From Chiloscyllium plagiosum (lineage: Eukaryota): a DNA stretch of 64,000 nucleotides. The position numbers and the translations under genes are program-made. The notes beneath the pieces are model-generated. The model saw only the letters and a program-made list of their open reading frames with translations, made no database searches and was not told the origin of the DNA. The DNA lies in the NCBI RefSeq assembly GCF_004010195.1, contig NC_057757.1, positions 9,645,646 through 9,709,645 of the forward strand. The letters run 5' to 3'. This document shows, piece after piece, positions 232 through 57,010 of this stretch (position 1 is the stretch's first letter; each line of letters begins with the position of its first letter).

Positions 232-994
232 ACAGGTGACCCCACTACACTATATACACTCTCTCTCCCTCTCACACACACACCCACACAGTTATATACT
301 CACACATTCATGCAGACCCTCTCTCATCCACACACACATACAGCTCCCACACTCACACCCACGCACGCATTCTCTCACAGGCTTATACTCCATCACATTC
401 ACACACCCACTTTACCAAGCTTGCACACATGCAAACACACGCTGTCTCATGTGCACTCACATTCATACACACGCACTCAGATAGACACACTCTGTCTCTC
501 TCCTGCATGCACACACACAGATCTGTTTGTGGGGTGAATTTGTATTTGCAGAATGATATTTGCAGGTACTTTCTCTTTTGCTCAAAAAATGCAAAACCTG
601 CAAAAAGTCAATGCAGGCAGTGAATCCATGTAATATTTGTAAATTCCACTTTGGAAGTAGAAGTAATCTGGCTCAAGATTGGTCTGACTTACACCATTAA
701 GGCATTGTCTGAGCTGAGATGTCACCTATTGTTATATAACTTTAAATTATCTTGAAAATGTGACTTAAAAGTAGTTCTGGGATTTACATATTAAAAGACC
801 GAAACCAGCAAATCCATTCTAAAAGATGAAAGACCTAACAATCTAGGTTTGTTCAATGTATCACTGTAATCCTTTGTTATAAATTCTGTGTCCTAAGATC
901 CTGCTCCACAGCTACCTGATGAAGCACTCCGAAAGCTAGTGCTCCCAAATAAACCTGTTGGACTATAACCTGGTGTTATGTGATTTTTAACTTT
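232..994 (+). mobile_element. Penelope-like element 3' region/pseudo-LTR with CA-rich tract and degenerate hammerhead motif
   Basis: CA-rich tract ~240-520; ends in ctgatgaagcactccgaaagctagtg...ggactataacctggtgttatgtgatttttaacttt, the same terminus as the copies at 2677, 7801 and 34940. Confidence 0.7.
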
Positions 995-1029
995 AGTCCT
1001 GGGATCCACATTGTATGGAACACAGCAAG

Positions 1030-1232
1030 ATAGGAAATAGGATGATAAGTAGGCCATCAGCCCTTTAAGCCTGCTCCACCATTCAAAATGATCATGGCTG
1101 ATCTTCCAACTCAGTCCCCTTTTCCCACTTTCTCCCCGTATCTTTGATCTTCTTAGCCCTCAGAACTATATTAAACCCCTTCTTGAAAATATTCAATACT
1201 CATGCCTCAACCACTTTCTGTGGTAAAGAGTT
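1030..1232 (-). mobile_element. old CR1 LINE 3' fragment
   Basis: Reverse complement resembles a CR1 3' UTR/ORF2 end (aggccatcagccctttaagcctgctccaccattc...atcatggctgatc). Confidence 0.65.
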
Positions 1233-1486
1233 ACCCTTTGTTCAATATAGACATTTATCTTTACTAATGAAACACCAGTAAAAGGCATTGGGAAAACTAG
1301 CAACCACAAAAGCCAGGCTTGCGCAAAACCACACAGTTAGAGCTGCTCAAATTGGTTTGAACAAAGCCGTAATATCAGGGGGCACCAGCTGCACTAGGTG
1401 ATAGTGCTCAGTCAATGTCATCTGGATGCCATGTTGTTTCTCATGGCAACTGGTAAAAAGACATCAGCAACACTAGAAAACCTAGT

Positions 1487-1797
1487 GGGCGGCACGGTGG
1501 CACAGTGGTTCGCACTGCTGCCTCACAGCGCCTGAGACCCGGGTTCAATTCCCGCCTCAGGCGACTAACTGTGTGGAGTCTGCACGTTCTCCCCGTGTCT
1601 GCGTGGGTTTCCTCCGGGTGCTCCAGTTTCCTCCCACAGTCCAAAGATGTGCAGGCCAAGTGAATTGGCCATGCTAAATTGCCCATAGTGTTAGGTAAGG
1701 GGTAAATGTAAGGGTATGGGTGGGTTGCGCTTCGGCGGGTCGGTGTGGACTTGTTGGGCCGAAGGGCCTGTTTCCACACTGTAATGTAATGTAATCT
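1487..1797 (+). mobile_element. HE1-type tRNA-derived V-SINE, full length, young
   Basis: A box tggcacagtgg, B box ggttcaattcc, V-domain tgtgtggagtctgcacgttctccccgtgtctgcgtgggtttcctccggg, CR1-like tail gggccgaagggcctgtttccacactgta plus short repeats. Confidence 0.92.
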
Positions 1798-2676: not shown

Positions 2677-2877
2677 AAGTTAAAAATCACACAACACCAG
2701 GTTATAGTCCAACAGGTTTATTTGGAAGCACTAGCTTTCGGAGCACTGCTCCTTCACCAGGTGATGAAGAAACAGCGCTTTGAAAGCTAGTGCTTCCAAA
2801 TACACCTGTTGGACTATAACCTGGTGTTGTGTGATTTTTAACTTTGTACACCCCAGTCCAACAATGGTGTCTCCAAA
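2677..2877. mobile_element. palindromic Penelope-like mini-element (inverted pseudo-LTRs plus tail)
   Basis: Arms ~2677-2760 and ~2761-2845 are reverse complements; flanked by tcagt(a/g)ttttgaa at 2666-2678 and 2878-2890. Confidence 0.8.
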
Positions 2878-2982
2878 TCAGTGTTTTGAAATGAGATATT
2901 GCTTTTGGGTTATTTGTTTCTCCCTCTGGAACTTCGTCCACGTGATGCACTGGTATCTGACAATCCTTTGTAAATAGTACTC

Positions 2983-3196
2983 AAGCAGGACGCTGGAAGA
3001 ACACAGCAAGCCAGGCAGCATCACGGGATGGAGAAATCAACATTTCGAGTATAACCTTCCTTCAAGAATTCCTGAAGAAGGATTACACCCTAAACGTTGG
3101 CTTCTTCACATCCTGAAGCTCTGTTGCTTGCTGTGTTCTTTCAGCCTCCTGCTTGTCAATTTTGGATTCCAGCATTTGCCGGTTTTTTTTGCCTCT
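2983..3196. mobile_element. older palindromic Penelope-like mini-element
   Basis: Imperfect inverted arms around ttcaagaattcctgaagaagg; decayed ctgaagaagg..acaccc.aaacgt motif. Confidence 0.65.
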
Positions 3197-3374
3197 AATT
3201 CCTTGTAGATTACTGTGGTGACCCAGAGTGCTTTACATCACCAATAGCAGTCCCAAGGGAATTCTCCAGATTTTTATTTTCCATTAATGGTCTCTCCCAG
3301 GAGATTACTCTGGGAGGTAGGAAGGTGTCTATACGTCTGGCATTATAGTTGTGAAACAGGTCTGATGGTATATC

Positions 3375-3464
3375 CTGATGAAGGGCTTATGTCCGAAACA
3401 TCGATTCTCCTGCTCCTCGGATGCTGCCTGACCTGCTGAGCTTTTCCAGCAACACATTCTTGAC
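3375..3464 (+). mobile_element. short Penelope-like terminus beginning at the hammerhead core
   Basis: Starts CTGATGAagggcttatgtccGAAAcatc; flanked by a perfect 14-bp duplication tctgatggtatatc (3361-3374, 3465-3478). Confidence 0.8.
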
Positions 3465-3655
3465 TCTGATGGTATATCTGACCTTTTCCTGTTCCTTGTT
3501 GCTGTAGATTTGGAATGAAGGTGGTGTAGTGAGATTGTCACTGATGATTCTGAGGCCCAGGCTAAGGTTTTAGGGACATGGATTCAAATCTTGCCCCACC
3601 AGCTGGTTAGTACATCCAAATAAAAAGCCAGTCTTCTTAATTGTGACCATGGTAA

Positions 3656-4292
3656 TGTGACGATACAATGGTTATTTTGTTTTTTTTTAAGAGAAGTTTT
3701 AAGACAGAAGTGCTGAGCTGTCTGTTTGGAAAACCAGTAGCCTAAATAGCTTGTGCAGCCTTAGAGTTTTTTTTTAGTTGGAATAATAGAAGCAGCCTGA
3801 ATGGGTGTGGTCAATCTCAAATCAAATAAGTTTTAGTTTCTTAGTTTTTCACACATAGCAATTGTTTTGGGATCCATTGCTGCAGTATTTCAGAATTTCA
3901 GTCTTTCAGAATTGTCTTGAAGTTTCTCCTCCTGGGCTGCTACAGTTGTGCATGAAATAATCTGTTTGCTTGAATTTCTCTTCTGCCAAGGCTGTGTTTA
4001 TGGAATGTTACTATATTGGAACTGTTAATTAGTAATAGCTAGTGGATCGATTATTATGTTAAGTTGTCCAATAGAGTCATAGCTAAGCCAATTATTGCCT
4101 TTATTCTTTCTTTTGTCTATATTGACCATAGTTTATGAATAAAGTGTGTTTTATTTTACGCTGGTTAGTTTGACCAATTGAATTGCATCTGGAATGCAAA
4201 ACCTTATATTTATCTTTAAAATAAGAAAATGCTAAGGTCTAGGTTACCTTCTTAATATATTTTAAAGTGGTCTGGTCTGGTCGATATCAACA
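3656..4292 (+). mobile_element. probable solo LTR
   Basis: 637-bp TG...CA block that splits a SINE; AATAAA at 4138; no clear TSD. Confidence 0.55.
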
Positions 4293-4380
4293 ACTATCAT
4301 TCATTTGTAAAAATCCATCTTGTTCTCTAATGTCCTTCTGGGGTGGAAACTTGCCATCCTAACTCCATATCCAAAACAGT

Positions 4381-4693
4381 GGGCGGCACGGTGGCACAGT
4401 GGTTAGCACTGCTGCCTCACAGCGCCAGAGACCCGGGTTCAATTCCCGACTCAGGCGACTGACTGTGTGGAGTTTGCACATTTTCCCCGTGTCTGCGTGG
4501 GTTTCCTCTGGGTGCTCCGGTTTCCTCCCACAGTCCAAAGATGTGCAGGTCAGGTGAATTGGCCATGCTAAATTGCCCGTAGTGTTAGGTTAAAGGGGTA
4601 AATGTAGGGGTATGGGTGGGTTGCGCTTCGGCGGGGGGGTGTGGACTTGTTGGGCCGAAGGGCCTGTTTCCACACTGTAAGTAATCTAATCTA
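4381..4693 (+). mobile_element. HE1-type V-SINE, full length
   Basis: Near-identical to 1487-1797. Confidence 0.92.
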
Positions 4694-7321
4694 GTGTGCT
4701 TCATTCTTAATTGCCCTTTGAAATGGCTGAGCAAGCCTTTCAGTTCCAGGGCAATTAGAGATGAGCAATAAACGCTGCTCTTGCCAGCACCCCCTACGTC
4801 TCATGTAAGAATCCAAGAGATACTTATCAAGCTGGGATCTCGATCCTCGAACACCAGTTACTGATTCCACACTCGTCTGGCCAACCGTGATGAGTTGAGA
4901 TTAGATGATGCCACCATGATACATTTGACGGAAATGGCTGCCTCGAGTAAGGGACTCCAGCCTTTGGTCATGTCCCCTACTGTTGGGGGGGGGGGGGGAG
5001 CCAGAGATAGAGGTGTAGACTGACAATCCTCCAGTGATTCCTTTTACTTCTCTTGGACTTGAGCATCTCACTTTGGGCTGCAAACTCTAAATGAATGACA
5101 GAGGGGGGAGCAGTTTCGCCCAATGACCTCCTGCATTTATCTGCCTCAGCTGGTAAAACAACCTTCTTCCAGGCCTACCCTACATTCTGGATATTTTTAT
5201 AACTCGTATAGGAAAGTATTCAGTGATAATTGAGAAAAAAAACACACATGTGAATTATTGATAACTCGATGATTATTCTCCAGATTTGCCCTGGAGATCA
5301 ATTGTCAATTTCTGGAGACTTGAACTCAATCCCTGAGCATTCGACAATGACAGTCTTTCTCCCTCCTGGTTAATATCAACCAATTCAAACCGGGAACAGA
5401 TGGAGTGTGGCTCCCCATTAGTCTGCAGCATGCACCATGGGACATTCCTTCACTAAGCCATCAGAGACTCCAACTCTTTGCTGATGCAATTGCAACACCA
5501 AAAACAAATTTGCTGGGTCACCAAATGATTCTTGATGACATTTGCAAGCCACTGTGCTGTTCTGAAATGCCTTCTGAAGGATAGGGTTCAATGTGGTTAA
5601 CCAGATGAGAGCCGGTTTGACCGCTATCCGACCAGGGTAGAGTTACTAGACTGAAAAAGCCATCGAGGTTTGGCACATCAGAATTGGGAGGGGTTCAGAA
5701 CCAGAGTTTTGAATTTCCTCAAAGACTCCTGTCATTTCCATTAGGTCAGGGCAGGGTCACCACCTGCACTCACTTAAAGTGGGGCGGGAACATGCAGGAA
5801 ATTAAAATTTCTCTGTCTTTGGCATTTCGTATAGCTGAGTGAGATCCGAAGCTTGTGCTAAGTGAATTCATGCACCGTGGCAGGGGACTACTGAAGAGTC
5901 AGGAACCTTTAACAGGTCAGTTTGAAAGTTGCTGCCAATGCCTCCTCATGTCTCACGTGTCCCCATCATTTTCTTTCATATGCCCAAACCACCCCTGGGG
6001 TCTTCTATCCCTAATGTCCTTTCCATACCCCTTCTGTGACCACTACCCATCCATATTCCAGGCCCACTCTCCCAATGGACATTATATAATTCCAATCACC
6101 CACTCAGATCTGGACAATCCTCAAAACAGTCATCGTATGCATTTGAAAATGTCCCTTGGGGAAAAGAAACTATTGAGCTCTTAAAAGTACCAAACAGCCA
6201 CCGTCATTCATCGTTTCAATGTCAAAAGCTTTCATCAAGCCCACATCCCTTAATCTTGTGTAAGCATTAAAAACCAACATCAAAGAAATAATTACTTATT
6301 ATAAGATAATACGTATGTCAATCAAACAAGCCATACAATTCCCTGCTAGGCATGTGAATGTTGCCTGCTGAGCTGAGGGCAGTATCTGTTCCTGGAGCTT
6401 AGCCAAACAACTGGATCTGCAGCAGTAGTTTGAGTAGATGACCAGATGACTTTTCCAGATTACCACATTTCCATTTGTCTTCCCAATTATTTGCTGTATC
6501 GGCAGGCTAACTTTTGTGATTCAGTTACCAGAACACTCAAAACCCTCTTTACTACAGCATTCAGTGTTTGTTCTCTATTTAAATATTGTGTTTTTCTCAT
6601 CCTGCTACCAAAGTGAACAGCCTCACATAGTTTTCACATTATACTTGATTTAACAAGTTTTCCCACTCACTTAACTTATGTTCCTTATATAGTTATGAGA
6701 AACATAACTAATCCTTATAGTTATAAGGAATAAGTTTGTATCATCCTTCCAAGTTGCTTTCCCACCTAATGTTATATCACCAGCTATTGTGGCTACAATA
6801 TACTCACTCCCTTTATTCACCTCATCAATACAGACTGTAAACACTTCAGCCGCAACACCATAAGCTCTTAACTTGTGTGCTGAAGTTTTATGTGGTAATT
6901 CTTTGCATTTCAGAAACCCAAATTCATTACATTTACTGGTTCCCCTTTATTGCCTCTGGTTATTACATACTCAAAGAGCTTGAATAAATTTTTCAGATAT
7001 GGTTATCCTTTTAGAAAACCACTTGGCACTACTTGATTGAATTATGATTTCCTAAATGTTCTGCCATTAATTTTATATTGCAGCACTATCCCAACGATAG
7101 ATAGAGACTATCTGCCCTCTTGTTCCGTTTTTCTCTCTCCATCCTTTCTAAACATTGGTTTAGAAAATCTGTCATTTTCTAAAACATTGAGAATCTGTCA
7201 CAATCTATGGATTTATGGAAGATTACAACCAATGCATCCATTACATTTGCTGCCACTTCTTTCAAGACCCTAGGAAGCAGACAACTACAGACTTGTTAGC
7301 CTTCTGACACATCAAGTTTTG

Positions 7322-7637
7322 AGATTAGATTAGATTCCCTACAGTGTGGAAACAGGCCCTTCGGCCCAACAAGTCCACACTGACCCGCCGAAGCGTATAC
7401 CACCCAGACCCATTCCCCTACATTTACCCCTTCACCTAACACTAGGGGCAATTTAGCATGGCCAATTCACCTAACCTGCCAATCTTTGGACTGTGGGAGG
7501 AAACCAGAGCACCCGGAGGAAACCCACACAGACACAGGGAGAATGTGCAAACTCCACACAGACAGCTACCCAAGGCTGAAATCAAACCTGGGTCCCTGTG
7601 CTGTGAGGCAGCAGTGCTTACCACTGAGCCACCGCCC
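7322..7637 (-). mobile_element. HE1-type V-SINE
   Basis: Reverse complement of the 1487 family, with an (agatt)n tail. Confidence 0.9.
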
Positions 7638-7800
7638 CTCTAGTTAATGTAATTGTTTTATTTTTCTCATTGAGATGGTACTACTCTTGAGATGATTTGA
7701 ATATCTTATGCTGTGAAGATAGATACAAAATACTTGTTCAAAGTCCTTATCATTGCTTCATTTACCATTAATAATTTCCAAGTCTCACTCTTTACAGGGG

Positions 7801-8002
7801 ACAAAGTTAAAAAATCACACAATACCACGGTATCGACCAACAGGTTTATTTGGACGGAGTAGCTTTCAGAGTGCTGCTTCATCATCAGGTGGTTTTGCAG
7901 AGATTTGAAAGCTTGTACCTCCAAATAAACCTGTTGGGCTATAACTTGGTGTTGTGTGATTTTTAACTTTAAGCAACCCAGTCCAACACTAGCTCCTTCA
8001 AA
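7801..8002. mobile_element. palindromic Penelope-like mini-element
   Basis: Same family as 2677; inverted arms; TSD tcttta(c/a)agggg at 7789-7800 and 8003-8014. Confidence 0.78.
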
Positions 8003-8442
8003 TCTTTAAAGGGGGGGTGCTGACTTGAGCTATTCTCCTCTTTTTCATAAAAGCGTAGAAGCTTCTACTGTCTATCTTTACACTTCTTGCTCATTTATTC
8101 TAATATTCCAATTTCTCCCTGTATCAGTTCTTTAGTCATCCTGGCTCAGTTTCTGAAAGTTTTTTTACTCAGCATCCGTATGGTGGAGTCTTTCTTTCTT
8201 TGACATCAATGACCCTCACTAGATTGGGCTTTTTGCAACAGTGTGGAGTTTCTTGATCACATAGTCCAGCCAGGCAAGTGCAGTAAATATAGAACATAGA
8301 ACAATATAGCGCAGGAGGAGAATGGGAGCATTCCCATAGGATTATTACCGTTTAGATTTATTCAAGGTACTACACACGTTTGCCTGAGCGTAAACTTAGT
8401 TAAATAAAATGGTTGGCATCGATCTTCAATAGGGGGGTGTAC

Positions 8443-8523
8443 CTTCAGGTGCTGGAGTTGCCTTCGCTCATCCTCCAGCTGTCGTTTCTTGTTTTCTATC
8501 TCTGTCTGTCGCTTCCTCTTCTC
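8443..8523 (-). CDS. PALM: paralemmin-1-like coding exon (equivalent to exon 3), EKRKRQTEIENKKRQLEDERRQLQHLK
   Basis: 81-nt phase 0/0 exon with a pyrimidine tract...cccag acceptor and AAG|gtacac donor; peptide nearly identical to the recalled paralemmin-1 EKRKRQAEIENKRRQLEDERRQLQHLK. Confidence 0.93.
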
Positions 8524-9006
8524 CTGGGAATGAGAGAGAGCAAGAAGGAATCAGTTCAAAAGACTCGCTAAATAATTCCCCGTTCACTTACTCAGTCTGT
8601 TGTCTCTCTCAGTTTTCCTGAATAGAACATCCTGAAAGGGGAACTGCTGCTGGATTTGCGTTACGTTGCATTAAATTCAGTGATTGGTTAATTGTGGATT
8701 TTCACACAGAAGGTGATGAATGAATTCACACAGTCTTTTAACGTCAGAGATTGGTTTCAGTTAAACATTATTATTGTGAAATATCGCTTTTTTTAAAAAA
8801 GGTTCCAATAAATTCTGAGTAACAATGGCAGCTTTTAATAGTTCCAAACAAAACTGCTGCTTCAACCGCCTGTCTCCCCTCCTCACTCCCACATTGTCCC
8901 AATACACCCCCTTCCCCACTCCATTCCTTCCCCACTCTCCCACTCTCCCACCCTCCCCCACTCCCTCCNNNNNNNNNNNNNNNNNNNNNNNNNNNNNNNN
9001 NNNNNN

Positions 9007-9593
9007 GTTCGTTAGCAGAGGGATTGAATTCAAGAGTCGTTAAGTGATGTTGCAGCTGTACAGGACTTTGTTTAGGCCACATTTGGAGTACTGTGTGCAG
9101 TTCTGGTTGCCTCACTTTAGGAAAGATGTGGAAGCTTTGGAGAGGGTGCAGAGAAGATTTACCAGGATGTTGCCTGGAATGGAGAGGAAGTCGTACGAGG
9201 ATAGGTTGAGAGTTCTCGGCCTTTTCTCGTTGGTACGGCGTAGGATGAGGGGTGACTTGATAGAGGTTTATAAGATGATCAGAGGAATAGATAGAGTAGA
9301 CAGTCAGAAACTTTTTCCCTGGGTACAACAGAGTGTTACAAGGGGACATAAATTTAAGGTGAAGGGTGGAAGGTATAGGGGAGATGTCAGGGGTGGGTTC
9401 TTTACCCAGAGAGTGGTGGGGGCATGGAATGCGCTGCCCGTGGGAGTGGTAGAGTCGGAATCATTGGCGACCTTTAAGCGGCATTTGGATAGGTACATGG
9501 ATGGGTACTTAATCTAGGTTAGAAGTTCGGCACAACATCGTGGGCCGAAGGGCCTGTTCTGTGCTGTATTGTTCTATGTTCTATGTTCTATGT
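9007..9593 (+). mobile_element. young CR1/HER1 LINE 3' fragment
   Basis: ORF 9044-9517 (LYRTLFRPHLEYCVQFW...FFTQRVVGAWNALP) and (ttctatg)n tail; 5' end lies in the gap; in-frame TAA at 9041. Confidence 0.95.
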
Positions 9594-9594
9594 A

Positions 9595-15077: not shown

Positions 15078-16259
15078 GAACCTGAATTGTAGTTCCAGTG
15101 TTCAGGAGGTTGAGAGTAGTGAGGTCAGAAATAAGGTTTCAAGGTCGCAAGAGTTGACCAGCATGCAGGAAGGTGGTTTGAAGTGTGTCTACTTCAACAC
15201 CAGGAGCATCCGGAATAAGGTGGATGAACATCAGCATGGGTTTGTACCTGGGACCTTGATGTTGCAATATTGTGGCCATTTCAGAGACATGGATAGACTG
15301 GGACAGGAATGGTTGTTGCAGATTCTGGGGTTTAGATGTTTCAGTAAGAACAGTGAAGATGGTAAAGGGGTGTGGGGGTGTGGCATTGTTAGGCAAGGAC
15401 ATTATTACGGTGGCCGAAAGGACGTTTGAGGACTCATCTAATTAAGTAGTATTGGCTGAGGTTAGAAACAGAAAAGGAGAAGTCACGCTTGTGGGAGTTT
15501 TCTGGAGGCCTCTGAATTGTTCTAGGGATGTAGCAGAAAGAATAGCAAAGATGGATAGGAGTGAGAGTAACAGGGCAGTTGTTATAGGGGACTTTAATTT
15601 TCCAAATATTGACTAGAAACATGATAGTTCGAGTACTTTATATGTGTCAGTTTTTGTCCAATATGTGCAGAATGGTTTCTTGACATGGTACATAAACAGG
15701 TCAACAAGGGGTGAGGCCACAGTGGATTTGGTACTGGGTAATGAAACCGGCCAGGTGTTAGATTTGGAGGTAGTGATCACAATTCGGTCATGTTCACTTT
15801 AGTGATGGAAAGGGATAGGTATATAATGCAGGGCAAGAGTTATTGCTGGGGGAAAGGCAATTATGATGCGATTAGGCAAGGTTTAGGTTGCATAGGATGG
15901 GGAAGGAAACTGCAGGGGATGGACACAATTAAAATGTGGAGCTTGTTCAAGGAACAGCTACTGCGTATCCTTGATAAGTATGTACCTGTCAGACAGGGAG
16001 GAAGTGGTCAAGTGAGGGAGCCGTGGTTTACTAAAGAAGTTGAATCTCTTGTCAAAAGGAAGAAGAGGCTTATATTAGGATGAGGTATGAAGATTCAGGG
16101 TGCTTGAGAGTTATGTGCTCGCCAGGAAAGACCTAAAGAAAGAGCTAAGAGCCAGGAGGGGACATGAGAAGTATTTGGCAGCTATGATCAAGGAAAACCC
16201 TGAAGTTTTTTACAGGTATATCAGAAATAAAAGAATGATCAGAGTAAGATTAGGGCCAA

Positions 16260-16475
16260 GCGCTGAAAATGTGTTGCTGGAAAAGTGCAGCAGGTCAGGC
16301 AGCATCCAAGGAGCAGGAGAATCGACGTTTCGGGCATAAGCCCTTCTTCAGGAAACGGGCTTATGCCCGAAACGTCGATTCTCCAGCTCCTTGGATGCTG
16401 CCTGACCTGCTGCACTTTTCCAGCAACACATTTTCAGCTCTGATCTCCAGCATCTGCAGTCCTCACTTTCTCCTC
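16260..16475. mobile_element. young palindromic Penelope-like mini-element nested in CR1
   Basis: 82-bp inverted arms 16262-16343 and 16357-16438 (one mismatch); perfect 15-bp TSD taagattagggccaa (16245-16259, 16476-16490). Confidence 0.9.
16319..16354 (-). ncRNA. minimal hammerhead ribozyme motif
   Basis: Minus strand reads ttcCTGAAGA-A-GGGC-ttat-GCCC-GAAAC-GTC-gatt. Confidence 0.6.
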
Positions 16476-19336
16476 TAAGATTAGGGCCAATCAAGGGTAG
16501 TAGTGGGAAGTTGTGTGTGGGGTCTGTGGAAAGTGGAAAGTGTTAAATGAATATTTTTCATCAATATTCAGACTGGAAAAAGACAATGTTGTTGAGGAGA
16601 ATACTGAGATACAGGCTACGAGACAAGACAGGATTGAAGTTCATAAGGAGGAGGTGTTAACAATTCTGGAAAGTGTGAAAATAGATAAGTCTGCTGGGCC
16701 GGATGGGATTTATCCTAGGATTCTCTGGGAAGCCAGGGAGGAGATTGCAGAGCTTTTGGCTTTGATCTTTATTTTGTCATTGTCTACAGGAATAGTACCA
16801 GAAGACCGGAGGATAGCAAATATTGTCCCCTTGTTCAAGAAGGGGAGTAGAGACAACCCTGGTAATTATAGACCAGTGAGCCTTACTTGTGGGTAAACTG
16901 TTAGAAAAGGTTATAAGAGATAGGATTTATAATCGTCTAGAGAGGAATAAGTTGATTAAGGGTAGTCAACACGGTTTTGTGAAGGTAATTCGTGCCTCAC
17001 AAACCTTTTGAGATCTTTGAGAAGGTGACCAAACAGGTGGATGAGGGTAAAGCGGTTGATATGGTGCATATGGATTTCAGTGAGGCTTTTGAAAAGGTTC
17101 CCCATGGTAGCCTATTTCACAAAATACAGAGGCATGGGATTGAGGGCAACTTAGCAGTTTGGATCAGAAATTGGTTTGTTGTCAAACAACAGAGGGTGAT
17201 GGTAAATGGGAAATGGTCATCCTGGAGTTCAGTTATGAAATGATGTGCTGCAAGGATCTGTTTTGGGAGTACTGCTGTTTGCCATTTTTGTAAATAACCT
17301 GGATGAGGGCGTAGAAGGATGGGTAAGTAAATTCACAGATGACATTAAGGTCGGTGGTGTTGTGAATAATGTGGAAGGATGTTGCAGGTTACAGAGGGAC
17401 ATAGGTAACTGCAGAGCTGGCTAAGAGGTGGCAAATGGAGTTTAATGTGGAAAAGTGTGAGGTGATTCACTTTGGAAAGAGCACTAATGAGCACTCTGGG
17501 TAGTGTAGATGAGCAAAGAGGTCTTGCTGTCCATGTACATAGATCTCTGAAAATTACCACTCAGGTTGATAGGGTTGTTAAGAAGGCATATGGTGTGTTA
17601 GCTTTTATTGGTAGAGGGATTGAGTTTCGGAGTCACGAGGTCATGCTGCAGCTGTACAAAACTCTGGTGCGGCTGCACTTGGAGTATTGCATACAGTTCT
17701 GGTCACTGCATTATAAGAAGAAAGTGGAAGCTTTGGAGAGGGTCCAGAAGAGATTTACTGGAATGTTATCTGATATGGAGGGAAGGTTTTATGAGGAAAG
17801 GCTAAGGAACTTGAAGCTGTTTTCATTCGAGAGAAGAAGGTTGAGAGGTGAATTAATTGAAACATATAAGATAATCAGAGGGTTAGATAAGGTGGACAGG
17901 GAGAGCCTTTTTCCTCCGATGGTGATGGTTAGCAAGATAGAACATAACTTTAAATTGAGGGGTGTTAGATTTATGACAGACGTCAGAGATAGTAGCATGG
18001 AACGCACTACCTGTAACAGTAGTAAACTCACCAACCTTAATGACTTTTAAATGGTCATTGGATAGACATGTGGATGAAAATGGAACAGTTTAGAATAGAT
18101 AGACTTGAGATTGGTTCCACAGGGCGGTGCAACATTTGAGGGCCAAAGGGCCTGTACTGCGCTGTAATGTTCTATGTTCTATGAGGTGTCCATTACCAGT
18201 CCTGCTGGGATTTGCTAATGTACAAATGCAGTAGCATTGGCTGGGCAGAATTCCAAACTGATTCCAGAGGTCTCTGCTCCCACCACATGCCCTGGATATT
18301 AAGATCAATTCTATTAATGGTAACAATACATATATATTTTAGTAGGGGCTTATTATTGTGATGCATTGTAATTACTAATATACTTCCAATGATCCAATGA
18401 TCACTGCTGGAATTTGCTGATAGACATCAATGAAGGACAGCATTGGGCTTGGTTATATCCCCAAAACCCCATAGAAAATCCAGTTCCCCCACCCTCCCTG
18501 GAGTCCAGTGCTCTTCCACTGCCCAACACTATCTCTCCCAAGTGTGAAAGTGGACCCTTATGTGAGGTTGTGCAGCTCTTCTCAAACCTTGGCCCAGTAG
18601 CAGATTGAAAAGGAGGGGAAGGGAATGGGCGATGGGAAGGAGAGGTGAAAGGGATGCACTGACCAGCTCATCATGCATCTTGTAACAACCAATCAGGAGA
18701 CGCATGTCCCAAAATCGAGTGGGATGTTGCTGGATGGGTAGATGTAGGATAAGGTCCATGTCGTCATGGAGAGTAAACGTATCAGTTACCAGTTTGATCC
18801 ATCCCATTCCACAGGCAGTTTAAACGATAATCCAGACTCACATCCCAGCCAGCAATTAAAGCCAAGTTTCATTTATTCATTCACAGCCTATTACTTATAC
18901 AGGTGAGATATTACAACATCTGGAGGGGACACTCTATCTTCGAAATGGAGTTCTGTTGGAAGCAGATATAGGAGAAGATGGAGATTGTTGATCAAAGTAC
19001 TTTCATTGAGTGGGGTGATCAGTCAAACTCATGTCATCCTCTGGCCAAAAGCCAGGATTAAATGGTTCTCATATTGATTACCATTCTCCATGGGCTGAAC
19101 CAGAACCACCCTCAGTCTGTACTGAGACAGCTGGTTTTGGAAGTGGGAGAGACGGTTCAGGACATTGGGTAACTGACAATGGCCAGTATTCCCTGATTAA
19201 TCATTTCAGATGTTGGGAACTGTCGAGAAGAGAGAGAGGAACATCGTTTCCAGTTGTGGCATCAGTTTATTGGGCTGCATTTTGGGTGTGGGTGGGGTGG
19301 GAGGGGGGTGTCAGCTGAGGAGGGAATCGTTTAAAA

Positions 19337-24292: not shown

Positions 24293-24309
24293 CCAACTAT
24301 AATTAACTA

Positions 24310-25700: not shown

Positions 25701-26050
25701 TTGCACCCATGATAGTTTTCTGCTAGTTAAGGGTGTCACGGTCCCTTTAAATTATATTTAAAAGCAGCTAGATAAAAGTAAATTCTGATTAGTGGAAGTT
25801 TTGTGGCAATCTGACAGATGGTCACCCTACTGCTTCTCATTTCCTCTGTCATTTTCTGCATTCTTATTTCTCGATTTTACTAATTTATTACTGAGTTTTT
25901 ATTTCTTTATTTTTCTAATTTTTGCCACTGAAAATTTGTACTTAAGAAGCTGTACCTAGGGACTTTGTTACCTTATATGGCTGCATAAGTGGTGACTTAT
26001 AAACTTTTCACTGTACTTGAGTACATGTGACAATCAAGCTCATTCTAATT

Positions 26051-26148
26051 CTGAGGAAGGGTCATTGGACTCGAAGCGTTAACTGATTTCTCTTCACAGC
26101 TGCTGCCAGACTTGCTGAGCTTTTCCAATAATTTTTGTTTTTGTTTCT
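26051..26148 (+). mobile_element. short Penelope-like terminus beginning at the hammerhead core
   Basis: CTGAGGA-A-gggtc-attg-gactc-gaagcgtt; sits in a ttctaattct repeat at the end of a Rex1-like tail. Confidence 0.65.
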
Positions 26149-27012: not shown

Positions 27013-27150
27013 GAGGGCTACGTTCCGATGAAGGGCTTTTGCCCGAAACATCGATTTTCCTGCTCCTCAGATGCTGCCTGACCTGCTGTGCTTTTCCAGC
27101 ACCACTCTAACCTAGACTCTGGTTTCCAGCACCTGCAGTTCTTGTTTTTA
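27013..27150 (+). mobile_element. short Penelope-like terminus
   Basis: ccgatgaagggcttttgcccgaaacatcg; TSD cctcaaagaa(c/t)atag at 26998-27012 and 27151-27165. Confidence 0.8.
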
Positions 27151-27154
27151 CCTC

Positions 27155-34842: not shown

Positions 34843-34939
34843 TTCCAAAATGAACAGCTTCACATTTTCCCACAATATACTCCATTTGCCAACTTTCTTC
34901 CAACTCTCTTAACCTATCAATATCTCTCTGTAGCCTGTT

Positions 34940-35208
34940 TAATTGGAAGCACACTAGCTTTCAGAGCGACGCTCCTTCATCAGGTGATTGTGGAGGGCTC
35001 GATCGTAACACAGAATTTATAGCAACAATTTGCAGTGTGATGTAACTGAAATTATACATTGAAAAATTGATTGTCTGTTAAGCCTTTCATCTGTTAGAAT
35101 ACAGTGATAGTTTCACTTCTTTCATGTGTAAATCACAAAACCCTTTATAACCTGGTGTTGTGTGATTTTTAACTTTGTACACCCCAATCCAACACCGGCA
35201 TCTCCAAA
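34940..35208. mobile_element. Penelope-like insertion with inverted 5' part
   Basis: Perfect 15-bp TSD tctctgtagcctgtt (34925-34939, 35209-35223); 34940-35145 on minus, 35146-35208 terminus on plus. Confidence 0.85.
34952..34986 (-). ncRNA. minimal hammerhead ribozyme motif
   Basis: Minus strand reads cac-CTGATGA-A-GGAGC-gtc-GCTCT-GAAA-GCTA-gtg; helix I cac/gtg, AGCT palindrome. Confidence 0.65.
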
Positions 35209-35727
35209 TCTCTGTAGCCTGTTCGTATTCCTCTTGCGACCTGACTTTCCACCTATTTTAATGTTGACTCCAAATGTGGCTACAGTACATTCACTGCCTT
35301 CTTCTAAGTCATTAACACATATCCATCTGATGGAAATGGAGATGCAACCTCCTCAGTGAAGCAATGCCCACCATCTTTAGAAGTTCTGTAGAACCTTCCA
35401 GCCTCTGTAAAAATCCGGCTCCTCAGTATCAGATCCATTCAAAGTTAATATTCCTTAAGATAAGGGACAAGTGAATAATGACCCTACACTGGGTGACAAT
35501 TGACAAGGAATCAGCACTTTGTTTTTTTTGCACAGTTTGTGCTTCCACAGATGGATTGCTATACAGAGACTTGCAGACTACAGCAAATTCTGAGGAGACA
35601 TCAGTACACACTTCCAACAAAACCACCTGGAGCACAGCGGCACGCATGTAGCATTCTCACACTTGCAACAAGCCCCTTTTAGCTGTGACTCTATTCTCCC
35701 AGCTGTGTTAGTCGTCCCACCAAGCTC

Positions 35728-37077: not shown

Positions 37078-37161
37078 TGGATGCTGCCCTGACCTGCGTG
37101 CTGTTCCAGCAATAAAGTTTCAACTTTGATCTCCAGCATCTGCAGACCTCACTTTCTCCTC
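37078..37161 (+). mobile_element. Penelope-like terminus after the gap
   Basis: gatctccagcatctgcagacctcactttctcctc, same tail as the 16260 element. Confidence 0.7.
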
Positions 37162-37385
37162 TGATCTTTGAGGGTCCCTATTCTCTCCCTAGTTACCCTT
37201 TTGTCCTTAGTGTATTTGTAAAAACCCTTTGGCTTCTCCTTAATTCTATTCGCCAAAGTTATCTCATATCCCATTTTTGCCATCCTGATTTACCTCTTAA
37301 GTATACTCCTACTGCCTTTATACTCTTCTAAGGATTCATTCGATCTCTCCTGTCTATACCTTACATATGCTTCCTTCTTTTTCTT
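37162..37385 (-). mobile_element. CR1 ORF2 internal fragment
   Basis: Minus strand encodes an RIKEKPKGFYKY...TRERIGP-type segment. Confidence 0.7.
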
Positions 37386-37386
37386 G

Positions 37387-42295: not shown

Positions 42296-43580
42296 AAACC
42301 AGCCTTCCATCCATTGACTCCATCTATAATTCCATCCACTGACTCCATCTATACCTCCATCCACTTACTCCATCTATAACTCCATCCATTGACTCCATCT
42401 ATAACTCCATCCATTGACTCCACCTATAACTCTATCCACTGACTCTATCTATAACTCCATCCAATGACTTCACCAATAACTCCATCCACTGACACCATCT
42501 ATAATCCCATCCACTGACTCCATCTATAACTCCATACATTGACTCCATCTATAATTCCATCCAATGACTCCATCTATAATTCCATCCATTGACTCCATCT
42601 ATAATTCCATCCATTGACTCCATCTTTAACTCCATCCACTGACTCTATCTATAACTCCATCCATTGACTCCATCTATAACTCCAATCACTGGCTCCATCT
42701 ATAACTCCATCCACTGCTCCATCTATAACTCCATCCATTGACTCCATCTATAATTCCATCCACTGACTCCATCTATAATTCCATCCATTGACTCCATGTA
42801 TAACTCCATCCAATGACTTCATCTAGAACTCCATTCACTGGCTCCAACTATAACTCCATCCACTGGCTCCATCTATAACTCCATCCACTGACTCCATCTA
42901 TAACTCCATCCACTGACTCTATCTATAATTCCATCCATTGACTCCATCTATAACTCCATCCACTGACTCCATGTATAACTCCATCCACTGACTTCATCTA
43001 TAACTCCATTCACTGGCTCCAACTATAACTCCATTCACTGGCTCCAACTATAACTCCATCCACTGGCTCCATCTATAACTCCATCCACTGCTCCATCTAT
43101 AACTCCATCCATTGACTCCATCTATAACTCCATCCACTGACTCCATCTATAATTCCATCCACTGACTCCATCTATAACTCCATCCACTGGCTCCAACTAT
43201 AACTCCATCCACTGACTCCATCTATAACTCCATCCACTGACTCCATCTATAATTCCTGCTGCCTTGGGAAAGTAAAGAACAATCAAAGACCCCTCCCACC
43301 TTGGTTGTGTTTTCTCTTCCATTGGGCCGAGGGTGTAAAAGTTTGAATACACTTGCGAACAAATTCAAGACCAGCTTCTTTCCCCCTGTTATCAGAGTTT
43401 AGGACAGACCTCTCAAATGTTAATTCTGATCTCTCTCTGTGTACCTTCTCTGTGGCTGTTACACTGTATTGTGTTTTGCTATTCTGATACATTTGGAACG
43501 GTACGATCTGCCTGTGTACATGCAAAACAACACTTTTCGCTGTATCTCGATGAGACAACAATAAAATAATTAATCAATCT
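42296..43580 (+). mobile_element. Rex1-like LINE 3' fragment containing an expanded minisatellite
   Basis: SLPSIDSIY...CLGK...IKDPSH...NKFKTSFFPPVIR-type ORF2 end, 3' UTR and aatca tail. Confidence 0.7.
42307..43255. repeat. 25-bp minisatellite (~38 units)
   Basis: Unit ctccatccactgactccatctataa. Confidence 0.97.
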
Positions 43581-44289: not shown

Positions 44290-44398
44290 GGAAATTAAAG
44301 AAAAACAGAAAATGCTGGAGAAACTCAACAGGTTATGTAATCTCTTTGGAGAGAGAAACAGAACTGATATTTCAAGTCTGATAAGACTGTTCTTCAGA
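44290..44398 (-). mobile_element. short Penelope-like terminus
   Basis: Minus strand CTGAAGA-A-cagtc-ttatca-gactt-GAAA...tttctccagcattttctgtttt. Confidence 0.6.
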
Positions 44399-44486
44399 GG
44401 TTCAGAGCTCGGACCAGGGTAAAACTCACAGATTTCTATTCTGAAAGGACATTAATAAACCAGATTGGTCTTTATGACAATTGTCA

Positions 44487-49368: not shown

Positions 49369-49862
49369 GCTATTTGATGTTCTATTGGACTGTGTGATTA
49401 AGAGCTAGATATTTTGTTAATACCGGTTTGCCAGTCTGTGTGATTGGGAGCTAATGAGCTAGTTATCAAATTATCTGAACATGATATGAATGTGGCAGTG
49501 ATGTTGGGAGGAATGTTTTTACAAAGCAAGCAGTTCCATTCTGTAGCAGAACACTGACATGATCTCGTGTTTCAGATCGCTCTCCAATGCAGCAGTTCAC
49601 CAGTACCCTGCAAAAGAATATTAACTTCATATATTGTGCACATTCGTCAAGGCTACCTAATATCAGATTTGAAAAAGGGGTCCAGTTGAATTCCCCACTG
49701 AAGTGGTTCTGCCTCGGAAGAAATGTCACTTGTTCCCAAAACGGAGTTCACCTTGATTGGGTTTACAGTAGATATTCCACCACTTCTCCCATCCCAGCTT
49801 GTGTGGGAGAGTCTGTGATCAGACAGTGAGTGGTTTACTCAGACAGAGGCTTCAGAGCTGAG

Positions 49863-50640
49863 AAAGTGAGGACTCCAGATGCTGGAGTACCAGAGTTGAA
49901 AAATGTGGTGCTGGAAAAACACAGCAGGCCAGGCAGCATACGAGGAGCAGGAGAATCGACGTTTCGGGCATAAGCCCTTCTTCAGGAATGAGGCTGGTGT
50001 GCCAAGCGGGCTGAGATAAAAGGTAGGGGGGAGGGGCGCTGGGAATACGATAGGTGGAAGGAGGTGAGGGTGAGGGTGATAGGCCGGAGAGNNNNNNNNN
50101 NNNNNNNNNNNNNNNNNNNNNNNNNNNNNNNNNNNNNNNNNNNNNNNNNNNNNNNNNNNNNNNNNNNNNNNNNNNNNNNNNNNNNNNNNNNNNNNNNNNN
50201 NNNNNNNNNNNNNNNNNNNNNNNNNNNNNNNNNNNNNNNNNNNNNNNNNNNNNNNNNNNNNNNNNNNNNNNNNNNNNNNNNNNNNNNNNNNNNNNNNNNN
50301 NNNNNNNNNNNNNNNNNNNNNNNNNNNNNNNNNNNNNTGGTTGCGGGGGAAGGGGCCGGGTGTGGAGGTGGGGTTGGTGGGGGGGTGTGGATCTGACGAG
50401 GGAGGGAGTGGTCTCTCCGTAACGCTGATAGGGGTGGGGATGGAAATATATCCTTGGTGTCTGTTTGGAGGTGGCGGAAATGACAGAGGATGATACGATG
50501 TATCCGGTGGAAGGTGAGGACCAGTGGGGTTCTGTCCTGGTGGCGATTGGAGGGGCGGGGTTCAAGGGCGGAGGTGCGGGAAGTGGAGGAGATGCAGTGG
50601 AGATTGTCGTCGACCACGTCAGAGGGGAAATTGCGGAGGG
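49863..50640 (-). mobile_element. Penelope-like element, 5'-truncated, spanning a gap
   Basis: Minus ORF ISSTSRTSALEPRPSNRHQDRTPLVLTFH...DIFPSPPLSALRRDHSL; pseudo-LTR with hammerhead; gagctgag on both flanks. Confidence 0.82.
49954..49989 (-). ncRNA. minimal hammerhead ribozyme motif
   Basis: Minus strand reads attc-CTGAAGA-A-GGGC-ttat-GCCC-GAAAC-GTC-gatt; ACGT palindrome. Confidence 0.62.
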
Positions 50641-51480
50641 GAGCTGAGGCCCAGAATGGGAGTCAACAGCATTTCTTCCTAATGTCAGAAATCTCCGGCA
50701 TGGGATCTGTGGTCTCTCAGTAACAGGAGTGTTCAGGAGCACCCCTGCCATCTCTCCACTCACTATTCAAGATGGGTGAGACTGACAGTGTGAGTTGCAC
50801 TGTGAGACCCATACTGAGATTACTCCCGACAGGAATTGCTGTTAGGCTTCCCTTCTAGAATCTGCCAGATTAAGCAAGAGCGAGAAAAACAGAAAATGTT
50901 TTCATTTGTATTGCACCTTTTGCACCACCTTAGGACATCCCAAGGCACAGGTGAGTGTTGTAAACACAGCGCCACATTTATGCAGACTGCAGACTTGAGG
51001 GAGAATCCCTCTGGGTGTGTTACTTGTTAGGTGTCAGGGTAAGGGAATATCTTGTGGTGACCAGAAGAGAAAATTGGAAAGGAAAGAGGATAATCCAGGG
51101 TAGGGCAGCCAAGAACATAGTGTAGGAACAGGCAGGACTGATAATTAGAGTTAGGGTTAGGGTCAGTTAGGCACTATATTTGAAAGCAATGACATTGAGG
51201 ATTGTAGATTTATTGCACATGTCACATGCAAATTAGCAGAGAGAAGATTATTCAGGGAAGTTACCATGTGGAGAAGTCTGGCAGAGACAAGACAGGGCTC
51301 TCTGTGTTCAAGGGGATTAGCCAGGAGGGTCGTTGTATCATTATTGAAAAGGATAAATAGGGAGGGGACCAAGGTTTTTAAATTAGTAACAAAGTGACAT
51401 GGAGCAGAGGGCGGGGGGAGTTTATGCAGAGAAGATGAAACTAATCTAAACATCAACAAAACAGAAAATACTAGGGTAAA

Positions 51481-53700: not shown

Positions 53701-53844
53701 AGTGCGGGAGCATTGTACTGACAGCAACAACAACACTGTACTTTCTAGGTTGATTTTGTGAATGCTCTGCAGAAAAGGGGTTTTGGATTGGGGTAGATTT
53801 CATTAAATAAGGCAATAGCCAGCCAATGTAGACAGGGATCAGCG

Positions 53845-54777
53845 AGTTCACTGCTTTTTGTCATTTATATAAAAGTGAACATCGGAGGCATAGTTAGTAA
53901 GTTTGCAGACGTCATCAAAAGTGGAGGTGTAGTGGACAGCAAGGAAAGGGTGACATCAGAGTACAACGGGACCTTTATCAGATGGGCCAATGGGCCAATG
54001 GGCTGAGGAGTTTAATTTAGATAAATATGAGCTGATGCATTTTGGAAAGGCAAATCAGGGCGGACTTGTACACTTAATAGTAAGGTACTGGGGAGTTTTG
54101 CTGAACAAAACTGAACTGGGAGTGCAGGTTCATAGTTCCTTGAAAGTAGAGTCGCATGTAGATAGGATAGTGAAGAAGGCATTTGGTATGCTTTCCTTTA
54201 TTGGTCAGAGTATTGAGTATAGGAGTTGGGAGGTCATGTTGCGGTGTACAGAACTTAGGTTAGGCCACTTTTGGAATACTGTGTGCAATTCTGGTCTCCC
54301 TCCGTTGTGAAACTTGAAAGGGTTCAGAAAAGATTTACAAGGATGTTGCCAGGGTTGGAGAGTTTGAACAATAGGGATAGGCTGATTAGTCTGGGACTGT
54401 TTTCCATGGAGCGAGGGACGCTGAGGGGTGACCTTATAGAAGTTGATAAAATCATGAAGGACATGGATAAGGTAAATAGACAAGATCTTTTTCCTGGGAT
54501 GGGGGAGTCCAGAACTAGAGGATATGGGTTAGGGTGAGAAGGGAAAAATTTAAAAATGACCTAAGGGGCAACTTTTCCACGCAGAGGGTGGTGTGTTTAT
54601 CGAATGAGCTGCCAGATGAAGTGGTGGAGACTGGTTGGGTGTATGAATAGGAAGGGTTTACAGGGATATGGGCAAGTGCTGGCAAATGGGACAAGGTTAA
54701 TTTAGGATATCTGGTCAGCATGGATGAGTTTGACCGAAGGGTCTGTTTCAGTGTTGTACACCTCTATGACTCTATAA
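53845..54777 (+). mobile_element. CR1 LINE 3' fragment
   Basis: SKFADV, KKAFGMLSFIGQSIEYRS, EYCVQFW; (tatgactc) tail. Confidence 0.92.
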
Positions 54778-54869
54778 CTTGAGGGTGAATCTACAACAGA
54801 ATAATGGGAGATTTTCAATAAGGTACTGAGCGAAGTACAGGCCCAAGATATTCCCTTTAGAATAAAGCA

Positions 54870-55190
54870 TTTTTAAATTCATTTTGCGGGATGTGGGCAT
54901 TTTCATTTCTCTTTCACTCCTCTGGCCAGCATTTATTGGCTATCCCTAGTTGCCCTTGGGAAGTGATGGTAAGCTGCCTTCTTGAACCGCTGCTATGAGT
55001 TGACCCACAATGTCATTAGAGAGTGAATTCCAGGATACTGAAGGAACGGTGATATATTTCCAAGTCAGGATAGTGAGTGGCCTGAAGGGTAATTTGAAGG
55101 TGATGGTGTTCCCATATATCTGCTGCCCTTGTCTTTCTGGATGGAAGGTTTTGGGAGTTGCTGTCTGAGGATCACTGGTGAATTGGTGCA
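54870..55190 (-). mobile_element. non-CR1 LINE 3' fragment (29195 family)
   Basis: gatatatttccaagtcagga and ctagttgcccttg shared with 29195-29780. Confidence 0.72.
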
Positions 55191-55199
55191 GGACCAAGA

Positions 55200-57010
55200 A
55201 GCCCAGAGAACCCTGGGTGTCCCGAAATATTCAAGACTGAATAAAAAGGAAAAGAGAGTTGAAAAAAGGAGGAAAGGGAGTGAAATAGTGGAGGCTTCTA
55301 GAGGAGTATGGAAAGGGCAGGAAAACTAGGGAGATTCCCAAGATATTCTATAAATATATGAAGGGGAAGGGTATAATCAGAAAAAGAGCAGGGAAGAAAG
55401 GAGCAGTGGAATCAGACAACATTGGAAGGGTGTTAAATCAGTGTTTCATTTCAGTTTTCACTCGGGGGAGGGTGTGGTTAGGGAGGACAACTGTGAAGTT
55501 GTTATCTTCATCTACACACACGGTCACCTCCACGAAAAATTAAATAAACTTTGTTCGGCATGACCTCCCTCTGACAGAACCATTCTGACTAATCCTGATC
55601 AAACCTTGCCTCTCTAAATGAAGATTAATTTTCTCTTTCACTCCTTCCTCCAATAGTTTCTCAACCACTGATGTGAAAGTCACTGGTGTATAGTTTTCCC
55701 TGGTCTATCTCTACCACCCTTCTTGAAAAGAGGAACCATATTAGCTGTCCTCCAGTCCTCTGGCACCTCCCCTGTGGCCAGAGAAGAAGAATTAAAAATT
55801 TGGGTCAGATGAGAGTAGTGTGGTTAATTCAGTTTACATGGATTTCAGCAATGCCTTTGACAATGGATAGAGATGAAGAAGGTAAAAGCACATGGGATCC
55901 AGGGTAACTTGGCAAGATCACCTAAAATTAGTGGTCTGTGTCATTGGAGCCCGGTATGCAGTGGTATGCCATTGGATCTGTGCTGGGTCCCTTATTGTTC
56001 ATTATGTGTGTGAACGATGGAGATGAGAATGTGGGGTCAGGATTAGTAAGTTTGTGGATGACATGAAGATTGGTCAGGTGGCTAATAGCGAGGAAGGTTT
56101 TAGATTATAGAAAGATATAGGTGGGTTGGTTTTGATGGCGGATCAGGGGGCAAATGCAATTTAATCCTGATAAATGTGAGGTGATGCATTTTGGAAGAAG
56201 TAACAAAACAAGAGAGTACTCAATGGATGTCAGGAGCCTAGGAAGCTCCGAGGAATGATCAGATCTTAGGATGCATGTCCACTGCTCACTGATGGTGGCA
56301 GGACTGGTTAATAAGGACTGGTTAATAAGGGAAATATGAAGGCATACAAGACATGTGCTTTTATCAGTCGTAACATAGATTATAAGAGCAGGGAGGTCAT
56401 GTTGGAGTTGTACAGGACTTTGGTTAGAACACACTTGGAGTACTGTGTCCAGTTCTGGTCCACATACTGTAGGAAGGATGTGATTGCAATGGAGGATGTT
56501 CAGAGAAGACTCACCAGGATGTTGTCTGGAATGGAGCATTTCAGCGATGAAGAGAAGCTGGATAAGCTCGGGTTGTTTTCTTTGGAGCAGGGAAGGCTGA
56601 GGAAAGACATGATTGAGGAGTATAAGATTATGAGGGGCATGGATAGGGTGGATACAAAGCAGCTGTTCCTCTTCATTTAAAGGTGAATAACAAGGGGACA
56701 TCATTTTGGGATGATGGGTAGCAAATTATTTTTCACCCAGAGTGTGGCAGTCATAAACCTTTAAACAATATGTGAGTCGAAAAGTGTGGCGCTGGAAAAG
56801 TACAGCTGGTCAGGCAGCATCCGAGGAGCAGGCGAATCGATGTTCCGGGTATAAGCCCTGTATCAGGAATGAGTGAATATATGGACGAGCACTTGAAATG
56901 TTATAACATTCATGTCTATGGACCAAATGCTGGAAGGTGGAACTACTGTTGATAGGTCAGTGCAGATTCAATGGGCTGAACGGCCTCTTCTGCAATGTAT
57001 GACTCCGTGA
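55200..57010 (+). mobile_element. decayed CR1 LINE with an internal inversion
   Basis: ORF2 motifs in order, but ~55498-55806 lies on the minus strand; ORF 56336-56680. Confidence 0.85.
56775..56872 (-). mobile_element. short Penelope-like terminus nested in CR1
   Basis: Homologous to 49905-49990, with a degenerate core. Confidence 0.72.

Follow-up and report, generated by a model that had tools for sequence, protein, structure and literature searches.

Minimal hammerhead motifs at the predicted RNA start of Penelope-like elements in the shark Chiloscyllium plagiosum

Minimal type I hammerhead ribozyme motifs were described in metazoan Penelope-like elements (PLEs) by Cervera and De la Pena in 2014, with weak cleavage as dimers, and a model was proposed in which cutting at both repeats of an element leaves ligatable ends that form a circle (PMC4209133). 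The function of Penelope hammerheads has been called unclear (PMC8557442). For the Anolis Poseidon element PAc, protein-assisted cleavage was shown, the ribozyme was dispensable for insertion, uncut RNA was used as the main template, and no RNA ends were found at the cut (PMC11167929). In this study, we analyzed such motifs in a 64,000-nucleotide (nt) stretch of Chiloscyllium plagiosum DNA, hereafter the window (RefSeq assembly GCF_004010195.1, contig NC_057757.1, forward-strand positions 9,645,646 to 9,709,645), and in a blind sample of the same genome, consisting of 120 stretches of 10 kb (1,156,432 non-N bases). The motif is confirmed as the minimal type I hammerhead of PLEs, a known class, to which we add a record of copy boundaries, a poly(A) site, and joins to U6. 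With a probability of roughly 75%, we read the motifs as minimal type I hammerheads in Penelope pseudo long terminal repeats (pseudo-LTRs); these hammerheads are predicted to form the first ~35 bases of the element RNA and likely cut it only occasionally. A literature search returned no paper on shark Penelope hammerheads, and none on cut-site U6 joins or on an RNA start or poly(A) site beside the motif, topics on which figures and supplements could also bear.

The motif was searched for with a descriptor consisting only of CTGANGA, a stem of at least four pairs, and GAAA, so that the palindrome and helix I remain independent tests. The window contains 5 such sites, compared with 0.37 in 100 shuffles, and in 4 of them the palindrome is present together with two or more helix I pairs (0.02 in shuffles). 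The blind sample contains 96 strict motifs, whereas 10 shuffles give 7.4 on average, an excess of 77 per Mb. Features outside the descriptor were frequent among these 96: U16.1 is present in 86, a non-G base at H17 in 95, a Watson-Crick palindrome in 63, and at least two pairs of helix I in 71. Of the 45 matches from the first half of the sample, 40 have a single extra base after the core. With a covariance model, 14 window sites were found at E < 0.05. By extrapolation, the genome would hold about 270,000 strict motifs, provided that the large scaffolds typify the 3.56-Gb assembly, and about 1 million repeat fragments.

The motifs are divided into five families in the window (A, B, C, D, and F) and six in the genome, where family E is added. 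The first-pass annotation of the window, made from its sequence alone, had noted that at least four families share the motif; the sharing holds, while the number is corrected to five. Among the majority sequences, family A has the stem II GGGC/GCCC, the palindrome ACGU, and a predicted cut after GUC, and family B has GGAGC/GCUCC, AGCU, and a predicted cut after CUA or CUU. Families C (GGGUC/GACCC) and D (GAGUC/GACUC) have a predicted cut after GUU, the stem of family F is GGGU/ACCC, and that of family E is about 7 bp long. The extra base, located between positions 9 and 10.1, is A in families A–D and F and U in family E. At every position of the CUGANGA, GAAA, U16.1, and H17 core, the majority base fits in all six families, and the core is constant between families while helices I, II, and III change compensatorily. 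Depending on the family, pair 1 of helix I is CG, UA, or AU and pair 2 is UA, AU, or CG; this helix has 2–4 pairs, and 2 bp in most of family A. The closing pair of helix II (G10.1-C11.1) is most commonly GC in all six families, and its pairs 2–4 each take three forms among GC, AU, UA, and CG. Helix III (15.2-16.2), which has no loop III, is GC in B, CG in A and E, and CG or CpG-decay forms of CG in C, D, and F.

These family-level pair changes are better evidence of covariation than per-copy counts. In a structure-anchored recount of 90 distinct copies, kept from 116 matches and counted as sequences rather than events, 80.4% of cells were paired against 59.1% in shuffles, and two-sided changes numbered 174 against 56; for either measure, 0 of 1000 shuffles was as high. 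The stem II covariation that had been put forward as a check on the ribozyme idea is present between families. An earlier pair count (76.6% paired, 0 of 500 shuffles) was set aside because its model shifted family B by one column, although it pointed in the same direction. Single-copy differences within families are mostly decay, and the frequent variants in family A, CpG-type changes aside, fall at N7, in loop II, and at a flexible helix I base. The first-pass claim that stem II varies yet keeps pairing holds between families, with GC, AU, UA, and CG switches, but several of the individual stems listed in its support are not cases of covariation. Those at 3375, 26051, 44370, and 34952 represent single-copy decay from the family majorities GGGC/GCCC, GGGTC/GACCC, GAGTC/GACTC, and GCTCC, respectively, and the motif at 3375 is also decayed in its palindrome (majority ACGT). 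The extra A and the very short helix I had been called non-canonical, but both have been described as part of the minimal hammerheads of Penelope elements (PMC4209133).

The association with PLEs that had been suggested for the motifs is borne out for families A, B, C, and F, which lie 3' of reverse transcriptase (RT)/GIY-YIG frames in other copies. For family A, these frames comprise RT, a Cx4CxxC linker, and GIY-YIG, and family B copies likewise follow RT/Cys linker/GIY-YIG frames. A Cx2-5CxxC linker between RT and the endonuclease marks the Neptune and Nematis clades (PMC8557442), and a linker of this type is present in the translations of both families. Families C and F are tied to Penelope frames by same-strand RT or endonuclease matches upstream. 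The link is weak for family D, with a same-strand match at 1 of 20 loci, a window remnant at E 0.001, and downstream sequence like that of family C. In a 654-amino-acid copy, one frame contains RT and, at its C terminus, GIY-YIG (Pfam RVT_1, E 1.5e-6; GIY-YIG, E 2.7e-4; both just under the curated cut-offs). This protein has 2,115 relatives at E up to 1e-50, and the closest named ones are from carpet sharks. One locus is a partial tandem in which the 5' repeat runs through the motif into the reading frame, and none of 20 RT-centred loci contains both repeats together. The element layout and the boundary data below refer to this genome only.

A young derivative of family E, about 680 bp long, was examined at 15 unlinked loci, and at 9 of them (L270, L276, L278, L282, L283, L275, L277, L279, and L281) it recurs with identical boundaries. 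Five of these copies contain another motif in inverted orientation, located at a shared position. In contrast to the stubs of families A–D, the derivative may be mobile as a unit. A Cys linker was not seen ahead of its endonuclease, and the derivative is probably of Poseidon type.

The copy boundaries carry the argument for the RNA start. After removal of 12 duplicates from 377, the list comprised 365 copies in the 1.16-Mb sample. For families A–D, 171 of 336 copies have their 5' end at -12..+10, counted from the first C of the core, a rate of 4.07% per nt compared with 0.57 downstream, 0.39 upstream, and 0.45% per nt within 2 nt of the cut. A small 5'-end peak at the cut site in a first pass was rejected as mostly CpG decay or microhomology. 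The 30 frame-bearing copies comprise 15 with their start at -7..+2, 3 that extend further upstream, and 12 that start downstream of this range, including 2 at N gaps. Flanks were unique in 66 of 90 apparently solo copies with their 5' end at this edge; an inverted partner had been missed in 16, and 8 may represent subfamilies lacking a reference. Long copies have an initiator-like pattern with A at -4, overlapping helix I (28/33 in A, 4/4 in C, 3/3 in D, and 5/6 in F), as judged by what we take to be the initiator consensus, and TATAAA is located at -37..-40 in 13 of 16 family B copies. Copies that start at the 5' edge of the motif behind TATA- or initiator-like signals, and not at the cut, suggest that the RNA likely starts near -4, just ahead of the core.

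The 3' ends cluster at two places, about +85 and +125 in family A and +82 and +118 in family B, which match the two internal priming sites plus tail of the Anolis element (PMC11167929). Among head-to-head pairs, 58 of 68 consist of one long and one short arm, and the solo copies are long in 102 cases and short in 127. Target duplications of 12–15 bp surround three window insertions. In the sample, duplications were found at 18 of 66 pairs and 2 of 66 controls with a crude script, which overlooked the 15-bp case in the window.

Family B has a poly(A) site within the repeat. In one poly(A) single-cell run, of which about 2% was read and whose species may be a related one, 3,678 reads mapped, and poly(A)-tailed reads end at +58 (715) and +55 (592) of family B, about 1,300 in all, 27–30 nt past the cut. 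These counts are of reads, with the number of distinct molecules not given, and the reads may stem from host genes using the repeat. The site lies 12–15 nt past a hexamer that alternates between AATAAA and ATTAAA, and the DNA behind it is not A-rich. The family B segment +38..+58 (L119:1527-1547) thus contains a working poly(A) signal, 10 nt past the cut site. A hexamer of this type is present in 13 of 173 family A copies and in none of C, D, and F. Thousands of dispersed family B copies could provide host genes with poly(A) sites.

Indirect evidence of cleavage comes from chimeras with U6. Forty of 48 scored U6 matches were fetched, and 6 of these 40 loci are U6–family A chimeras. In 4 of the 6 (L316, L332, L347, and L354), the U-tract of U6 is joined directly to +28, the first base past GUC, exactly at the GUC cut that the first-pass annotation had predicted. 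They represent four loci, four repeat variants, and full-length U6. The BLAST match starts at +26 in two of them because the reference has a decayed CpG there; an earlier join would need the CpG change in all four, and this change was seen in 13 of 105 family A copies. The other two joins lie inside the frame end, and none is at -4. Only 3 of 182 ordinary family A copies begin within 2 nt of +28. By eye, about 17 of the 40 U6 copies (L321-L353) have what is presumably a tRNA-like short interspersed element (SINE) head within ~25 bases on their 3' side. U6 ends in a cyclic phosphate, and RtcB ligates it to 5'-OH ends (PMC6789731). Joins at the position of a hammerhead-type 5'-OH are therefore indirect evidence of germ-line cleavage, for family A only. 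It is likely, from these genomic joins, that the motifs cut element RNA in living cells.

Several results weigh against this interpretation. Poly(A) read depth across the family B cut declines gradually (1,926, 1,871, 1,600, and 1,423) with no sharp drop, so that uncut RNA is common. The U6 evidence covers four loci of family A alone, from 40 of 48 scored matches. A single motif is unable to close helix III alone and, in fold predictions, the designed dimer was the lowest-energy fold in 0 of 7 examples; cutting is therefore probably rare and protein-assisted. Raw RNA reads break off chiefly at -4 (106 reads) and -3 (32), but they come from host transcripts with embedded copies and thus echo the DNA boundary, and neither RNA read set shows a site where many molecules begin or end. 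The initiator-like pattern coincides with helix I in families that are related to each other, and none of the 16 B copies or the 8 E copies has it; family E also shows no clear 5' pile-up (3/20, p 0.12). Penelope of D. virilis has a TATA-less internal promoter and an intron ahead of the motif (PMC2377424), so that the layout does not apply to all such elements.

The pile-up of 5' ends could alternatively result from stalling or fold-back of the RT on structured RNA, with no RNA start involved. The edge is a partial palindrome in families A and B, overlaps of a few bases are common at the junctions, the peak spans about 20 nt, and 45 of 336 copies end further upstream, with others beyond the measured range. 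However, an enzyme that travels 3' to 5' along the RNA would be expected to stop where it first meets the fold, on its 3' side near +32, and the rate there equals background, while the 66 solo copies with unique flanks share the same edge and the TATA-like and initiator-like signals lie at the expected spacing, which makes this explanation unlikely. The motif itself might be a conserved RNA fold or protein-binding site, derived from a hammerhead and with no useful cutting left. Ordinary copies have no cut-site peak (7/336), uncut polyadenylated RNA is abundant, cleavage mutants had no effect on insertion in vitro (PMC11167929), and 8 of 9 Xenopus retrozyme dimers failed to cut (bioRxiv 10.64898/2026.07.22.740005). 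We consider this quite unlikely, since the catalytic positions and non-G 17 are the majority in six families despite the changed helices, and in four U6 chimeras the junction coincides exactly with the predicted bond.

The short copies might also be a self-spreading, non-autonomous family, SINE- or retrozyme-like and driven by the ribozyme. Their density is very high (365 copies in 1.16 Mb), target duplications flank 18 of 66 pairs but only 2 of the 66 controls, and the family E derivative recurs as a unit. In families A–D, by contrast, pair junctions vary between copies, the stubs have no upstream promoter signals, and frame-bearing copies have boundaries identical to those of the stubs. Direct tandem arrays of 150–450-nt hammerhead units are absent from the window, and same-strand neighbours are few and irregular. 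This origin is largely excluded for A–D and, overall, highly improbable.

We propose the following pathway for hammerheads that lie at the RNA start and cut occasionally. A putative polymerase II promoter in the upstream repeat would start the RNA about 4 nt ahead of the core. The element protein would prime reverse transcription at two internal sites, ~85 and ~120 nt past the core, and priming at the 5' copy of these sites would run off the RNA start, giving stubs of 85–130 nt, either solo or as long-plus-short head-to-head pairs. The stubs would derive from uncut RNA, and where they are paired, a hairpin would enclose the motif. Occasionally, the motif would fold, probably as a palindrome dimer with the help of protein, and cut after GUC, CUA, or GUU. 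A ligase could join the resulting 5'-OH end to U6; if it used the cut 3' end of the element itself instead, a circle would form.

Somewhat short of an even chance, and offered tentatively, is a wider scheme in which the pseudo-LTR acts as a retroviral-LTR-like unit with a live ribozyme in R, combining promoter, RNA start, hammerhead, poly(A) site (family B), and two priming sites. The 5' repeat would give a strong-stop-like cDNA, and stalled cDNA would account for several hundred thousand stubs. The rest of the element would be reached only by a jump across R or on a ribozyme-made RNA circle, regenerating the tandem repeat, and the U6 chimeras would be fossils of the cut-and-ligate step. Jumps between subfamily RNAs were not seen in 70 long family A copies: upstream and downstream types were concordant in 67, and the other 3 were poor matches. 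Jumps within one RNA are outside the scope of this comparison.

The copies in the window are as follows.
911-943, plus strand: family B motif with a stem II deletion, in a long 3'-end copy (about 688-1000).
2667-2890: family B head-to-head pair with one long and one short arm and a 12-bp target duplication (2667-2678/2879-2890); motifs at 2727-2765 (minus) and 2756-2794 (plus), each with a core change.
2980-3194: family F head-to-head pair, absent from the first-pass list; decayed motifs at 3067-3104 (plus) and 3033-3070 (minus).
3370-3469, plus strand: family A solo stub, starting 2 nt ahead of the core, with a decayed palindrome.
7799-8015: decayed family B head-to-head pair with its core at 7888 (minus).
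16245-16490: family A head-to-head pair, flanked by a target duplication of 15 bp (16245-16259/16476-16490); one arm has an intact motif at 16318-16356 (minus), and the other begins 8 nt inside the motif.
24071-25700, plus strand: old, decayed PLE with an RT/linker remnant (24071-24649), an endonuclease-end remnant (25167-25370), and a family D motif that has lost G12 (25598-25640, plus).
26046-26148, plus strand: family C solo stub, starting 4 nt ahead of the core, with A15.1 changed.
27021-27151, plus strand: family A solo stub with one core base missing.
27620-27707, minus strand: family C stub with stem II deleted.
34926-35223: family B insertion inside a CR1-like long interspersed element (LINE), with a 14-bp duplication (34926-34939/35210-35223); 3'-end copy (minus) with a near-intact motif at 34950-34988, and a short arm at 35146-35210 (plus).
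37078-37164, plus strand: 3' part of family A, the 5' side masked by an N gap.
44304-44402, minus strand: decayed family D solo stub, G10.1-C11.1 lost.
49860-50766, minus strand: 5'-truncated family A element with a frame remnant (50635-50402, 77% to a longer copy), an N gap, and a 3' untranslated region; intact motif at 49952-49990 (minus), followed by a long tail.
56781-56873, minus strand: family A solo stub, starting 7 nt ahead of a broken core.

All motif sites listed in the first-pass annotation are present in the window, but several are damaged as motifs: the one at 27025 is short of one core base, the core is altered at 2730-2763 and broken at 56872, and stem II carries a deletion at 916. 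Intact motifs are those at 16318-16356, 49952-49990, and, one wobble aside, 34950-34988. The window copies are mostly decayed or dead stubs and by-products, and many are locked in long hairpins; positions 16259-16480, for example, are predicted to fold as one long hairpin of about -174 kcal/mol. Therefore, the window does not represent a set of working ribozymes.

An Rfam scan of the window, of the kind proposed in the first-pass annotation, gave 9 matches at E up to 1, with no hammerhead family among them. The matches to microRNA families were rejected as far below the gathering scores and are attributed to the hairpins. The best one, mir-722 at 16318-16384, reached 40 bits against a cut-off of 81, and its arms hold GAAACGUU, like those of the motif; this likeness is probably due to chance. 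Such hairpins could pass for, or give rise to, microRNA precursors. The window also contains a 33-bp minisatellite of 123 copies (20234-24279), which ends at the old PLE remnant, and a 25-bp minisatellite of 38 copies (42306-43256). Many broken LINE reading frames, which we take to be CR1-like, are located at 9044-9517, 15745-18050, 32974-34960, and 58041-59443, and one of them hosts the family B insertion at 34926-35223.

The ends of the repeats point to a predicted RNA start, two priming sites, and a poly(A) site in one family, and, via the U6 chimeras, to a real cut. Together, these observations make ribozyme function testable by mapping and cleavage experiments.

In their type I core, extra base between 9 and 10.1, G10.1-C11.1 pair, loopless palindromic 15.2-16.2, and short helix I, the C. 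plagiosum motifs resemble the metazoan minimal hammerheads, as they do in their pseudo-LTR site, their many solo and opposite-strand copies, and the presence of several families per genome (PMC4209133). While helix II has 7–8 bp in Schistosoma, it has 4–5 bp in families A–D and F here, and helix I is as short as 2 bp in most of family A, unlike in the set of that paper, whose text and one supplement name no shark (PMC4209133). The density is far higher, with about 270,000 strict motifs by extrapolation compared with 4,000–9,000 in coelacanth and Xenopus, counted with different descriptors (PMC4209133). Like Anolis Poseidon PAc (Frangieh 2024, PMC11167929), the shark elements have short and long 3' ends as expected from two internal RT start sites, but families A and B have a Neptune/Nematis-type Cys linker. 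Whereas no reads at the cut were found for PAc (PMC11167929), the genome examined here records copies that start at the edge of the motif, pairs of long and short arms, and U6 joined at the cut. The head-to-head inverted repeats, the tail on one arm, and the target duplications are as in insertions of endonuclease-bearing PLEs, and TATA and initiator-like pseudo-LTR signals are known from Adineta PLEs (PMC3846280, PMC8557442). Unlike those insertions, most of the present ones consist of the repeat only and meet at the 5' edge of the ribozyme. The U6 chimeras resemble the U6/LINE-1 chimeras made by RtcB (Moldovan 2019, PMC6789731), in which full-length U6 is joined through its U-tract to the 3' part of a retroelement; there the junction is variable, while here the partner is a PLE and the junction is fixed at the predicted ribozyme cut. 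Non-LTR retrozymes likewise carry type I hammerheads and are derived from or related to PLE pseudo-LTRs (PMC7229834; bioRxiv 10.64898/2026.07.22.740005), but they form direct tandem arrays (PMC7229834), whereas the copies in C. plagiosum are dispersed, solo or inverted.

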